64,000 bases of DNA from Eledone cirrhosa (GCA_964016885.1 OZ024763.1:2294001-2358000); one strand, 5' to 3'. Shown: positions 1,186-61,411, numbered from the stretch's first letter. Program-made: numbers and translations. Notes: a model not told the origin generated them from the sequence alone.

Positions 1186-1968
1186 TTTATACACACATCA
1201 CACGCACACACACATATTTATATATATATATATATATTATTCAATTGGTGAAAGTTGGTTTATCATATAATCCGCCAACTTTTTTATGAACAGTCAAAGC
1301 ACTCTACAATTTGTATTCCTTAGGATTTTCTTATATATATATATATATATATATATATGAGTTTCAGAAAATCTCATAAAAAGCTGAAAGCAGAAATTCT
1401 TTGTTTAAACTTTAATCTGCACTAATAATAAATATTTACTCTACGGATTTATGTATATATATATATATATATATGGGTATATACATACTTTTATATGAGA
1501 AAATCTCTCCCAAGGTAACTCTATCTTGTGTTATTATTTTTATTTTTTACGCTCTTTCCTACGTTCCTCAACACACTATACATCTCATTCTACATTTCCT
1601 CTTACATCTCTCTCTGCACCACCGGATTCTGTTACCTGGAGATTTACCCATCTGCATTGTTGAGGCTTCCAAAACGACCTAAAGAAATATACTTTTATAT
1701 ATATATATATATATATATATATAAATGGAAAAGAATGAAATGAAATTTCATTTCTCACTCTTAGTACGGCTGATACTTAAATGCAAGTATGTATACGTAC
1801 ATACATATATGTATACAGACGTACAGTAGTATGTATATATATATATACATACATGCACACACATAACATTTATTATAATGTTCAGTTTGTTTGTAAGCAA
1901 ACAGCCCGAATTAAGCCGAACAGTGTCTAGCAACCATCATTGCCCTTTTGTTCAACACTGACAAAGGA

Positions 1969-2011
1969 ACGATGAACTAGTTTCAAGCTTATTAGCTATC
2001 GTCAGCATCGT
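1969..2011 (-). ncRNA. Minimal type I hammerhead ribozyme motif
   Basis: acgatg-CTGACGA-tagctaataagctt-GAAA-CTAG-TT-catcgt: 6-bp stem I, short stem II (agct/agct), palindromic CTAG stem III loop. Confidence 0.7.
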
Positions 2012-2066
2012 ATACTTTCCTGTAAGTATATACTTTCAAACGTTCAACCATCTGACAGGAAGGTAT

Positions 2067-2110
2067 ACAATGCTGACGATATGCTAATAAGCTTGAAACT
2101 AGTTCATCGT
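2067..2110 (+). ncRNA. Minimal type I hammerhead ribozyme motif (mirror copy)
   Basis: acaatg-CTGACGA-tatgctaataagctt-GAAA-CTAG-TT-catcgt; one stem I mismatch. Confidence 0.6.
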
Positions 2111-2512
2111 TCCTTTGTCAGTGTTGAACAAAAGGGCAACGATGGTTGCTAGACACTGTTCGGCTTAATTCGGGCTGTTTGTTTACAAACAAACTGAACA
2201 TTATAATAAATGTTATGTGTGTGCATGTATGTATGTACATATACATACTTGCATATATATATATATGGGTATATACATATTTTATATATATATGGGTATA
2301 TACATACTTTATATATATATATAAAGTATATATAAAGTATGTATATATGGATATATACATACTTTTATATATATATATATATATATATGTAGGAGGTGAG
2401 TTTTATTGTAGTACAATAAAGCAATGCAGATATCGGATAAGAAGCACTCTACAGTTTGTAGGACTGGAGTATGCATAATATAAGATCAAAAGATGGTTAA
2501 AGGAGTTCCATA

Positions 2513-2583
2513 TATTTTATTATGCGCATTTCAAAAACAAACATCATCATGCAATAATATTTGTGTTTTCATCAGATAAAACA
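2513..2583 (-). ncRNA. Type I hammerhead ribozyme motif
   Basis: Reverse complement of 2929-2999. Confidence 0.8.
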
Positions 2584-2928
2584 GGAGAACATGATATGAA
2601 GGCTAAAAAACACTTGTGGATAGTGCAGTTTTAAATCAACATATGAAAAGTGGTTTTAGATTGATGTGTGATATTGGGAAAAAATATTTTATTTAGAGAG
2701 GGGGGGGAAGGATGAAAAGGGAAGGAGATGAGAGGGAGAGATGGGTGATAGAGAGAAAGAGATAGTTTTTATATAAAAACTATCTCTTTCTCTCTATCAC
2801 CCATCTCTCCCTCTCATCTCCTTCCCTTTTCATCCTTTCCCCCCCCCCCTCTCTAAAACCACTTTTCATATGTTGATTTAAAACTGCACTATCCACAAGT
2901 GTTTTTTAGCCTTCATATCATGTTCTCC

Positions 2929-2999
2929 TGTTTTATCTGATGAAAACACAAATATTATTGCATGATGATGTTTGTTTTTGAAATGCGCATAATAAAATA
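2929..2999 (+). ncRNA. Type I hammerhead ribozyme motif
   Basis: tgttttat-CTGATGA-[aaacacaaatattatt gcat gatgatgtttgttttt]-GAAA-TGCGCA-TA-ataaaata: 8-bp stem I, long stem II, palindromic stem III. Confidence 0.8.
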
Positions 3000-3129
3000 T
3001 ATGGAACTCCTTTAACCATCTTTTGATCTTATATTATATATATATATATATATACACACAATCCTTATCAAGCCCTCTTAAGATCTTTGTATTTACTATT
3101 ACTAATATATATATTATATATACTTTGAT

Positions 3130-3372
3130 TAAATCTTAACCATTTAACATCTCAGGATATGTCATGTATCATTATATTTTGTCTGATGAGGACGTACTGT
3201 TGTACCTCTGAAATATGTATAATAAAATTTAATTGATCAAAAGAACACCTATTTTATTAATATTTGTATTTTAATATTAATAACTCTGGAAAATTATTTA
3301 CTGTAGAGTGCTTCCAATCTACTGTAAAACTCATTCTTTGATATACTCATTGAATCTTGTTTAACTCTTTAA
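3130..3372 (+). mobile_element. PLE-like element family 3 (no inverted arm)
   Basis: Homologous along its length to 10640-10890; ends in (TA)n. Confidence 0.7.
3176..3228 (+). ncRNA. Type I hammerhead ribozyme motif
   Basis: attttgt-CTGATGA-ggacgtac tgtt gtacctct-GAAA-TATGTA-TA-ataaaat. Confidence 0.75.
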
Positions 3373-57800: not shown

Positions 57801-58200
57801 ATATATATATACATGATGATGATGGTATATATATACATATATATATGTGTGTGTATACGTAATGTGTTGATGATATATCTCTCTATATATATATGTATGT
57901 ACCTGTACATATATATATATGTGTGTATATACCTATACATACGCACATATATATATATATATATATATATATATATATATATATATATATATATATATAT
58001 ATATATATATACATATATATATATACATGATGATGATGGTATATATATATATATATATATATATATATATATATATGTGTGTGTGTATATGTTATGTGTT
58101 GATGATATATCTCTCTCTATATATATATGTGTATATGGTATGTGTATATACACATACACATACGTATATGTATATATCTGTCTATATATATGTTGAATAT
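54830..58200. repeat. (TG), (TA), (CA) microsatellite-derived arrays with short spacers
   Basis: Visible; SINE A tail fragment at 56617-56686. Confidence 0.9.
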
Positions 58201-58211
58201 ATATATATATA

Positions 58212-58322
58212 TAAGTTTATCCCAGTTTCAATTGGAGGAAACCACAGTAAGTAAGGTACTCAATACATAGCAGAGTATAAATATTTAATATCGTCCTTTA
58301 GAAGCCATTTCTATATTAAATA
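58212..58322 (-). mobile_element. PLE-like family 6 tail with inverted upstream piece
   Basis: 58212-58290 matches the reverse complement of 32418-32498; 58293-58322 matches 32927-32955 in + sense. Confidence 0.65.
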
Positions 58323-58344
58323 TATATATATACTTGATAATGAT

Positions 58345-59810
58345 GATATATATATGTATATATATATATATATATATATATATATATATATATATATATA
58401 TATATATATATATATGTATGTATGTATACATATATATGTATATTTATGTATGTATATATATATATATTTATATATATATATATATATATATATATATATA
58501 TATATATATATTTATATATATATATATATATTTATATATTTATATATATATATTTATATATATATATATATATATATATATATATATTTATATATATATA
58601 TTTATATTTATATATTTATATTTATATTTATATATTTATATTTATATATATATATTTATATATATATATTTATATATATATATTTATATTTATATATTTA
58701 TATTTATATATATATATTTATATATATATATTTATATATATATATTTATATATATATATTTATATTTATATATTTATATATATATATTTATATATTTATA
58801 TATATATTTATATATATATATTTATATATTTATATATTTATATATATAAATATATATATATATATATTTATATATATTTATATTTTTATATATATATTTA
58901 TATTTATATATATATATATATATATATATATATATATATATATATATATATATATATATATATGTATGTATATATATAATAACGTTATCAAATGAAAGCT
59001 ATTGAATATAAACCTACGGACACAACAGAAATAATAGTTCTGTATTAGATTAGTTTGGGAGAGAGACAGAGAGATAGATAAAAATACATATATATATATA
59101 GAGAGAGGGGGGGGGGCTGACACACAGACAGAGACAGACAGATAGAGAGAGATATAGAAAGATATATATATATGAGAGAGAGAGAGAGAGAGAGAGAGAT
59201 ATAGAAAGATATATATATATATATATGAGAGAGAGAGAGAGAGAGAGAGATATATAGAAAGATATATATATATGAGAGAGAGATAGTAAGTTATATATAT
59301 ATATATGAGAGAGAGAGAGGGGGGGGGGCTGACACACAGACAGAGACAGACAGACAGATAGAGAGAGATATAGAAAGATATATATATATGAGAGAGAGAG
59401 ATAGAAAGTTATATACATATATATATATATATATGAGAGAGGGAGAGAGAGATAGAAAGTTATATACATATATATATATATATATAGAGAGAGAGAGAGA
59501 GAGAATATATATATATATATAGAGAGAGAGAGAAGGGGGGGGGCTGACACACAGACAGAGACAGACAGACAGATAGAGATATAGAAAGATATATATATAT
59601 ATATATATGAGAGAGAGAGAGAGAGATAGAAACTTATATACACATATATATTTATATATAGAGATAGAGAGAGAAAGCTATATACATATATATATATATA
59701 TATATATATAGAGAGAGAGATATAGAAAGTTATATATATATATATATATATATATAGAGAGAGAGAGAGAGAGAGAGAGAGAGAGAGAGAGAGAGAGAGA
59801 GAGAGAAGAG
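58345..59810. repeat. (TA)n/(TATT) and (GA)/(TA) compound microsatellites
   Basis: Visible. Confidence 0.95.
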
Positions 59811-60351
59811 GTTTGAGCCAGTTAAGTATGTAAACAAAGTGACAATATTGTAGAAAGGTATATAAGCAATAGCTCTTTATTAGATTAGAATAAGAAAATA
59901 GGGAGTAAAAGATTGAGTCAGGGAGCTGTGTAACTAGATTGATTACAGGGACAGCAGGACTGGGGGTGAGGAGGCGGAGGGGGGACTATAGCACTTGTTT
60001 ATATATATATATATATCATATCAGAGTAAGGGGTTAACCTTACAGGGATGTGTAGACCCTATTATGGTTTGTTGGTTGTGAAGCAGATAAAGAGAAGCAC
60101 CCAACGACCTGTATAAATGGTACAAAACGGAACATTATATATTAATAAAAGATCGGAGGCCATAATTTTCTCCCAAAACATTTACTTTTCATAATACAGG
60201 GGCCGGCCAAACGCATGGTGTTGTTTCTTTGACAGCCGGACCCTTATATATATATATATATATATAAAATGAGGTAAATATCTCTCTGAGTACTAAGTAC
60301 CCATAGAGATATATAGGGTGTCTATAATATAATATATATATATATATATAA

Positions 60352-60760
60352 GACCCGCCTTACCTAAGTACAAAGTGAAACCTACTACAGTCAGTAGGCA
60401 TCTCTAACAAAATACACCCCCATCCCACCACCCCCACCCCATCCACACCGCCCCTTTCAATGTAAAGTTATGTTGGCACCACAACATCCAGCCCGAAACA
60501 AATGAGATCGTGTAGGTGTCACAACAAAAAAACATACAGTCCACGCTGTAATGTGGCCGTGTAGGTAACACGGTAAAAACCTCCCAGTCCACACTGTAAA
60601 CGTGGTTGGTGTTAGGAAGGGCATCCAGCCGTAGAAAACCCACCAGACAGTCCTGTACGAGCAAGACAACCACTCTTGCCTCAAGTGGGAAAACTCCCGT
60701 CCAAACCCATGCAAGCGTGGAAGATGGACGTTAAACAATGATGATGATGATGATGATGAT
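60352..60760 (+). mobile_element. SINE-like subfamily B, long copy
   Basis: Colinear with 40700-41085. Confidence 0.8.
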
Positions 60761-61138
60761 ATATAGATGATGATGATATACAGATAAACCTACCACTCAG
60801 TGGTAGGGTCTAAACCGTATAAAGAACTCAATGTAATCCGTTTATTTCTGAAGACGGTGGGTAGTGAAGACTATGCATTTTTTTCTTACTATGATATTTT
60901 GTAATATGTTTTACATAGATCAATAATTGAATGAACATTCAGAGAACTACCCCCGCCCCCCCAGAAACGATCGTAAAATAATGAGTTTTACTATGAATTA
61001 ACAGTTTTGTGTTTAATTTCATTGTTTTAATATTTCTCTCTCTATATATATAGTTAAATATTAGACAGGAACAAAAAACAGAGAAGCATTACAAATGGTA
61101 GTTTATTAGGTTCACGCTTTTGAAAGTGGGAGAGGGGG

Positions 61139-61166
61139 GACGTTTCGGGCATAAGCCCTTCATCAG
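61139..61166 (-). ncRNA. Minimal Penelope-type hammerhead core
   Basis: CTGATGA-AGGGC TTAT GCCC-GAAA-CG-TC; stem I does not pair locally; lies in (TA)n-flanked insert 61053-61222. Confidence 0.55.
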
Positions 61167-61411
61167 GAGAAAAGTGGGTAGGAAGTAGAGTTCCGCGGGT
61201 GTGTGGGGGAGTGATGGAAAGATATATATATATAAATATATATATACACACACACACACTTAGAAGTGTCAGCTGAAAAGTTCCTAGGCTGACCAAGACA
61301 CTCTCAAGAAATGACCAAATGAGGTTTATTTGTCAACATAGTCCCTCGAAAGTAACAACGCAGTTATTAAGAAGAGTTGAAATTAATGCACCTTGCCACA
61401 CCCTCTTTGTT

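Follow-up and report, generated by a model that had tools for sequence, protein, structure and literature searches.

Head-to-head hammerhead inserts on (TA)n repeats of Eledone cirrhosa are mostly short ends of Penelope-like elements and of one retrozyme-like family

A stretch of 64,000 nt of the 3.0-Gb genome of Eledone cirrhosa (GCA_964016885.1 OZ024763.1:2294001-2358000; the window), with 37% GC and abundant (TA)n, contains short non-coding inserts that abut TA repeats, carry hammerhead ribozyme motifs and mostly consist of two inverted arms. This raises the question of which elements leave such inserts and how two arms come to be joined head to head. An initial annotation of the window listed 13 of them. 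Self-comparison of the window sorts these into seven families, A (insert 1722), B (2388, 5891), C (3130, 10518), D (18007, 32975, 34460, 46695), E (7402), F (32336, 58212) and G (61053); items beyond the first listing are an insert at 12815, added as family H, and fragments at 5795 and 32915. An insert is present at every one of the 13 coordinates, with (TA)n at one end at least, as had been claimed; the left end of the 18007 insert adjoins a different repeat. Ten of the 13 (1722, 2388, 5891, 7402, 10518, 18007, 32336, 34460, 46695 and 58212) are head-to-head with the sense strands pointing outwards, and three (3130, 32975 and 61053) are single arms.

The sampled set consists of the window and 100 ten-kb stretches, of which 20 adjoin the window and 80 lie at fixed steps elsewhere; loci taken from the genome are labelled by L-numbers. 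Raw reads are from three runs of other samples under the same species label. Arm positions are counted from C3 of the ribozyme core (U3 in D), so that the cleavage site of family B is at +55. The inserts are short 3'/pseudo-long-terminal-repeat (pLTR) ends of several families of Penelope-like elements (PLEs), largely of Hydra type, plus one retrozyme-like family. The joint probability of this origin and of a head-to-head pair being two complementary DNAs (cDNAs) primed separately from both strands of a cut TA repeat is estimated at about 0.8.

Penelope-like origin of the insert families

A search of the genome for GIY-YIG endonucleases has returned 10,596 candidates, of which 150 were scored, and PLE endonucleases are numerous. 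Walking upstream from family B reaches an open reading frame (ORF) in many of 19 loci. The full-length B copy in L218 consists of an inverted tail-less arm, a pLTR with a tail, a frame of 742 amino acids, a 3' untranslated region (UTR) and a pLTR, and its unit is about 3,555 nt long. Family D leads upstream to a Hydra-type ORF as in B, and its master, a tandem unit of 3,543 nt, has a frame of 750 amino acids. In both families a single ORF encodes reverse transcriptase (RT) plus a C-terminal GIY-YIG domain. The Hydra motifs DKT, CxCx5C, CxxC and CxH are present and CCHH is absent in the ORFs of B, of D and of relatives of E; at the RWK position, RW is followed by I in B and by R in D. A pLTR or partial tandem with a neighbouring inverted, 5'-truncated copy is seen in L218 and in the tandem units and pairs of D. 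The B and D inserts derive from Hydra-type PLE units of about 3.5 kb, of which they are the 3'/pLTR ends. The families had been described as unrelated and without primary-sequence similarity, a description contradicted by the 36% identity of the B and D proteins and by the 72-74% identity of B, C and E over about 75 nt, with a common stem I, a palindromic 6-nt stem III and a UA cleavage site.

Other families are linked to further PLE ORFs. Relatives of family E with 77-79% identity end Hydra-type endonuclease ORFs in three loci, and relatives of family G with 76-78% identity sit about 1.5 kb downstream of a PLE RT/GIY-YIG ORF with a cysteine linker. Copies of family H run into another PLE ORF composed of RT, a cysteine linker and a GIY-YIG domain. 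Extension of the 5' flanks, which the initial annotation had put forward as a check, reaches PLE ORFs directly in B and D, through copies or relatives in H and through relatives in E and G, and reaches none in A, C and F. Pfam recognizes no family in the Hydra-type ORF, and PF26215 is found in 9 of 31 homologues.

Several observations weigh against so broad an assignment. Family C shows no ORF within 1.5 kb upstream in 15 loci, nor in five extended loci. Family F has no ORF link, its long copies entering lengthy TG/TA arrays with nested elements. The links of E and G go through relatives of 76-79% identity and not through the subfamilies of the window itself. The units of 3.5 kb and the tails of 68-84 nt exceed the <3 kb and 30-40 bp given for the Hydra clade (PMC8557442; this and the other cited works are drawn on here in excerpt), and the clade labels rest on motifs. 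The 30 top-scoring GIY-YIG loci and 20 loci with long ORFs are PLEs, yet none of them continues into families A to H, and no PLE ORF remnant is present within the 64-kb window.

Family A differs in consisting of head-to-tail 461-nt units, each with one hammerhead and with no ORF seen; its cores lie 461 nt apart in L215, and its copies are often head-to-head partial tandems. It is likely to be a non-autonomous tandem retrozyme mobilised by PLE machinery. The inserts had been taken for non-autonomous or truncated PLE-type elements. The PLE origin and the truncation hold, but only family A looks non-autonomous; for most families the inserts are what is left of autonomous PLEs with long 3' UTRs, truncated to their ends, and not self-replicating non-autonomous minis.

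Formation of the pairs and their fixed 5' ends

Families B, D, E and F each have two fixed 3' ends, 68-84 nt apart, so that an arm is either tailed or tail-less. All 56 short head-to-head pairs combine one tailed and one tail-less arm, joined at their 5' ends. In 22 of these pairs the tail-less arm extends 5' beyond the tailed one by 8 nt or more, in 4 the tailed arm does so, and in 30 the two begin within 8 nt of each other. Long D pairs combine a tailed and a tail-less arm in 11 of 12 cases, and in 6 of these 11 the tail-less arm exceeds the tailed one in length. Folding back on the tailed arm could not have produced a tail-less arm that extends beyond it. The initial annotation had described a long tailed arm with a shorter inverted arm and had called the elements fold-back. 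The outward geometry stands, but the order of lengths does not hold generally, and the fold-back mechanism is disfavoured because the tail-less arm often extends further 5' than the tailed arm. Among 54 D pairs, a rare variant is confined to a single arm in 46 instances and shared by the two arms in only one, the 46695 insert. The junctions of D are specific to each copy, even among copies of 99% identity.

These observations suggest that the two arms are primed separately. The PLE endonuclease would nick both strands of (TA)n. One 3'-OH would prime reverse transcription at the far start site to produce the tailed arm, and the other would prime at the near start site to produce the tail-less arm. 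Both cDNAs would extend 5'-ward on an uncleaved RNA template and might then be joined through microhomology. A search of the open-access literature found no report of twin priming or of fixed 5' stops in PLEs.

The strongest rival is snap-back self-priming, in which the 3' end of a cDNA would fold over and prime the copying of the cDNA itself; the short arm made in this way would afterwards be joined to the (TA)n upstream. Microhomology of 2-3 nt or a perfect palindrome is found at many D junctions, and short junctions with 2-nt microhomology suit snap-back priming equally well; self-priming has been inferred from junction palindromes in the excerpts of PMC3846280. The 30 pairs whose arms begin within 8 nt of each other are also compatible with it, and the 46695 insert, in which each arm carries the private variant, speaks for it. 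One long D pair made of two tail-less arms does not fit the pairing of a near and a far start either. However, the tail-less arm outreaches its tailed partner on the 5' side in 22 of 56 short pairs and in 6 of 11 long D pairs and so could not have been copied from it, and a tailed arm is not copyable from a tail-less one. Snap-back is already refuted as the sole route and is improbable as the general one, while self-priming is possible for some of the short pairs.

The 5' ends of the arms also cluster. Of 60 D arms, 47 begin between +36 and +56 from U3, and of 43 F arms, 33 begin between -8 and +8; clustering is weaker in B (8/26) and E (10/52). In the raw reads of all three runs, 487-570 read ends fall at D +39, opposite-strand joints occur near the D and F points, and contig depth increases by a factor of more than ten on crossing the D point and by several-fold on crossing the F point. 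A read-end peak at 5164 was set aside as an AATT site, probably a library cut of restriction-site-associated DNA sequencing. The ribozyme cut site was rejected as the origin of the stub 5' ends; such ends lie within 3 nt of it in 0/60 arms of D, 0/43 of F, 0/52 of E and 1/26 of B (1/181 overall).

Most D and F cDNAs would end at one point, probably the 5' end of the RNA. Transcription start in the pLTR is the likeliest source of the D and F points, in agreement with PMC3846280 and PMC2377424, and an RT stop at an RNA structure is possible. A TATA-like box precedes the 5' point by 25 nt in D and by 30 nt in F, where the chance expectation is 2-3%; C and E have such boxes too, with a higher chance expectation, and B, E2 and E3 have none. 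A TATA-like box stands at the expected distance in only 4 of 7 masters, a point against this reading. Unit-length D loci, which were picked for two whole cores and are therefore biased with respect to +39 starts, begin at -79 or further upstream.

A tentative extension, to which we give clearly less than an even chance, is that the stubs record, across the genome, where PLE RNAs end, and that each PLE dimer primes from both strands of a (TA)n break, at two fixed start sites in the 5' pLTR copy of the RNA. Both cDNAs would run to the capped 5' end. The D start would lie inside ribozyme loop II, 25 nt below a TATA-like box that belongs to stem II. A start within loop II would leave the 5' ribozyme copy of D dead by design, with only the 3' copy able to cut. 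If true, one model would account for why PLE pairs are head-to-head, why only one side bears a tail and why hundreds of thousands of ribozyme motifs do no harm.

Two further observations concern these ends. In family F at L181:665-741, reads of all three runs link the tail-less end to about -20, giving mini-tandems of 75-78 nt with a whole hammerhead each. In L053:8620-8700, L146, L063 and the upstream part of family A, a motif is found 40-70 nt upstream of the common 5' end. We take this motif to be an octamer, presumably with a stretch like the proximal sequence element of small nuclear RNA genes in the relatives of E.

Hammerhead motifs, abundance and (TA)n targeting

Type I hammerheads were searched with a strict descriptor, controlled by 100 shuffles, and a relaxed descriptor, controlled by 5 shuffles. 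The strict descriptor finds 8 motifs in the window against a shuffle mean of 0.08 and a maximum of 2, and the relaxed one finds 9 complete motifs against none. The nine motifs belong to A (one), B (two), C (three), E (two) and F (one) at the positions in Table 1, and the C motif at 10567 on the minus strand qualifies only through a shortened alternative stem I. The claim that five families contain the complete core CUGANGA/GAAA/UH with three stems is thus borne out for A, B, C, E and F, except that the 5891 and 58212 inserts are coreless, and the claim of a 3' half in a sixth family is confirmed in all four D inserts. Stem I is absent in G (61053), 2-3 bp long in H and 3 bp long in the plus-strand arm of 1722. 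The folding energies of 8 window motifs are mostly not better than those of shuffles (z -2.15 to +0.28). An Rfam scan of the window gives no hammerhead family among the matches listed (150 of 420), and among these the palindromes have only sub-threshold matches resembling microRNAs (miRNAs).

The full ribozyme of family D, found in its long copies, has a U3-A8 core with 2,184 exact genome matches, a core variant already published for PLEs (PMC4209133). A canonical CUGANGA 5' half was tried for D and rejected, having only 4 genome matches, all at fold-back junctions. U.U replaces G10.1-C11.1 in A and F, and A-U takes that place in B. Stem covariation, which had been proposed as a check, is evident in A, with two-sided changes in 6 of 12 pairs against none in 500 shuffles (an alignment of 16 rows, of which one belongs to another family), and weak in F, with 1 of 12 pairs (27 of 30 rows kept, three of another family being dropped). 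At least ten more hammerhead families exist outside the window (L160:5806-6229, L134, L162, L154, L051, L072 and L147), some with long perfect stems III, and L116:4045-9164 and L158:6165-7877 hold 310-nt tandem arrays with one hammerhead per unit and two outward-facing arms.

A second rival, slightly less probable than snap-back, is that the ribozymes are active in place, either cutting host pre-mRNA on either strand, as the initial annotation had proposed, or setting the template ends. Intact cores far above chance and the covariation of the A stems are in line with activity, as are the 5891 insert, which begins beside the cut site, and the green anole PLE ribozyme, which cleaves with its protein present (PMC11167929). 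However, a single arm in 181 starts at the cut site, the F covariation is weak and part of the A signal comes from the one row of another family. In the predicted folds of read-through RNA, the core is fully paired with the opposite arm in 7 of 7 window inserts. Published minimal PLE ribozymes show, in the excerpts, no monomer cleavage and low dimer cleavage, and the anole ribozyme depends on protein and is dispensable for insertion in vitro (PMC11167929). Since the cleavage site is not where the stubs begin and the core is predicted to be hidden in read-through RNA, the ribozyme is best regarded as a passenger in the stubs. Cleavage of host pre-mRNA is unsupported by these folds, which would limit the risk to single arms.

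Arms in the window and the 100 stretches number 19 in A, 26 in B, 21 in C (including partial matches from E relatives), 60 in D, 52 in E, 43 in F, 6 in G and 10 in H. Outside the window, the relaxed descriptor finds 110 C3-G8 motifs in 1,000 kb, 17 of them from one tandem array, whereas each shuffle of a stratum gives 0 or 1. The genome load, a rough figure scaled from 800 kb distant from the window, is about 240,000-310,000 complete motifs, in agreement with the very large load that had been anticipated. About 4,000-9,000 hammerheads have been reported in coelacanth and Xenopus (PMC4209133), and the highest published count met is about 120,000 retrozymes in axolotl, again in excerpt; a search of the open-access literature found no hammerhead count for cephalopods. 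An exact 28-nt piece of the D 3' half has 47,502 genome matches, with none for a reversed control, and so D stubs are far commoner than long copies, given the 2,184 exact matches of the 5' half.

This excess of D and F stubs and their common fixed ends invite a third rival, namely that the short palindromes are minis like miniature inverted-repeat transposable elements or short interspersed nuclear elements (SINEs), non-autonomous, transcribed and self-replicating as hairpins. Family A is a genuine ORF-less tandem unit, and an internal promoter has been published for Penelope of Drosophila virilis (PMC2377424). However, the D junctions vary by copy even at 99% identity, families B, D, E, G and H continue into long UTRs and ORFs, and no excess of A-to-G changes, looked for as a sign of editing, is found between the arms of the 8 window pairs compared, which makes self-replicating minis less probable still than ribozymes active in place. 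Assembly or library chimeras, suggested by the identity of the B arms over 186 of 186 nt and by reports in excerpt that inverted PLE structures trouble assemblies, are very improbable, given that the arms of other pairs differ by 1-6%, that the ends of every family lie at fixed element positions and that the raw Illumina reads of all three runs contain strand-switch joints and TA beyond the arm ends.

The proposal that (TA)n is the target is supported by the arms of families B, D, E, F, G and H, 133 of 195 of which have (TA)4 after their 3' end, compared with 7.6% of random positions, but TA adjacency is not PLE-specific, since 7 of 17 copies of one non-PLE repeat and 21 of 40 copies of another also end on TA. 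We take these two repeats to be RTE-like and SINE-like. Some PLE 3' UTRs bear long TG/TA arrays of their own, as seen in the long F copies of L243, L247 and L250 and in L177. Part of the microsatellite mass of the genome, and of the new insertion targets, may be PLE-borne.

Table 1. Inserts and fragments of families A to H in the window (core positions with strand in brackets).
Feature	Position	Strand	Details
Family A, head-to-head insert; arms of the 461-nt tandem ORF-less retrozyme-like unit	1724..2260		Complete core 2005 (-); core 2073 (+) with 3-bp stem I
Family B, head-to-head insert; 3' end of Hydra-type PLE (full-length L218)	2388..3037		Tailed arm 2772-2388 (-), tail-less arm 2773-3037 (+); complete cores 2575 (-), 2937 (+)
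Family C, one tailed arm	3125..3372	+	Complete core 3183
Family E, fragment	5795..5877	+	Tail only, flanked by TA runs
Family B, short head-to-head insert	5892..6069		Coreless; arm starts about +53 and about +68 from C3 (cleavage site +55)
Family E, head-to-head insert	7404..7861		Tail-less arm (-), tailed arm (+); complete cores 7502 (-), 7671 (+)
Family C, head-to-head insert	10505..10890		Complete core 10691 (+); core 10567 (-) with stem I shortened
Family H, one arm	12815..12960 (left end exact, right approximate)	-	Core 12856; strong stem II, 2-3 bp stem I
Family D, head-to-head insert	18007..18218		Ribozyme 3' half only; left end on another repeat
Family F, insert	32332..32499		Tailed arm (+), complete core 32368; inverted stub of 28 nt
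Family F, fragment	32915..32954	+	Tail-less
Family D, one tailed arm	32971..33108	-	Ribozyme 3' half
Family D, head-to-head insert	34459..34661		Ribozyme 3' half in each arm
Family D, head-to-head insert	46695..46897		Variant common to both arms, in no other of 146 D arms
Family F, short head-to-head insert	58212..58320		Coreless
Family G, one arm	61053..61222	-	Core 61166; stems II and III, no stem I

The window contains other features of related appearance. A TA-centred palindrome with arms of about 70 nt and no hammerhead core lies at 41259-41440, with no second copy in the first 400 kb sampled. A piece of another PLE end with a probable U3-A8 hammerhead lies at 41491-41595, and related motifs are scored as complete in L127, L147 and L172. 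The 3' end of an element like a long interspersed nuclear element, presumably RTE-like, lies on (TA)n at 17315-17800 and is seen in L041 as an inverted pair around a TA run. Two copies at 10881-11200 and 53117-53406, with 82% identity over 316 nt and not repeat-looking, have a pyrimidine tract and AG followed immediately by GTAAGT, which resembles a zero-length exon or a recursive splice site; their 13-nt junction is absent from every retrieved locus.

Significance and comparison with known systems

For annotation, the abundant palindromes of this genome are to be read as PLE ends; they are neither hairpins of miRNAs nor a new kind of mini-transposon. PLEs of the Hydra type have been described as a small clade but form a major repeat class here. 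The tailed/tail-less pairing and the fixed stops make the origin of the inverted ends and the start point of PLE RNA testable.

The Hydra clade comprises PLEs with a C-terminal endonuclease (EN+), generally <3 kb long and with an optional tail of 30-40 bp, and the supplement of the same work records a (TA)n preference and a hammerhead for Hydra-1_Obim of Octopus bimaculoides (PMC8557442). The elements of E. cirrhosa resemble this clade in the single ORF of RT and C-terminal GIY-YIG, the motifs DKT, CxCx5C, CxxC and CxH without CCHH, the hammerhead near the 3' end, insertion into (TA)n, the inverted 5'-truncated copy and the one-sided tail. They differ in that several lineages co-exist at very high copy number, whereas one Hydra family appears among the octopus rows listed there, in their units of about 3.5 kb and tails of 68-84 nt, and in the fixed 5' stops of D and F, which the excerpts do not describe.

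The minimal hammerheads of metazoan PLEs (PMC4209133) share with those described here the palindromic stem III, the extra nucleotide after A9 and the U3-A8 variant; there too, most copies are truncated, opposite-strand pairs lie 100-700 bp apart and many families occur per genome. The differences are the load, 240,000-310,000 motifs compared with about 4,000-9,000, and the U.U (A and F) or A-U (B) in place of G10.1-C11.1. In vitro, the Poseidon PLE of the green anole (PMC11167929) cuts and extends both target strands at an AT-rich target and uses two internal RT start sites flanking the tail on an uncleaved RNA template, as proposed here. Poseidon belongs to another clade, and the joining of the two products into a head-to-head insert, which that work does not demonstrate, is implied here by the 56/56 pairing. 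Penelope elements of Adineta vaga (PMC3846280) likewise have head-to-head inverted pLTRs, junction palindromes, an optional tail and TATA plus initiator-like motifs in the pLTR. They are explained there by self-priming, and their target-site duplications are visible, unlike those in (TA)n, which are unreadable.

Family A resembles the retrozymes without long terminal repeats (PMC7229834; 10.64898/2026.07.22.740005) in its ORF-less tandem with one type I hammerhead per unit, and differs in its 461-nt unit, compared with a range of 150-450 bp, and in its frequent head-to-head partial tandems. Published PLEs already show truncated copies in inverted orientation, tails on one side only, hammerheads and a (TA)n target; to these features, the E. 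cirrhosa inserts add further members, a very high load and, as hints to mechanism, the tailed/tail-less pairing and the fixed 5' stop points.

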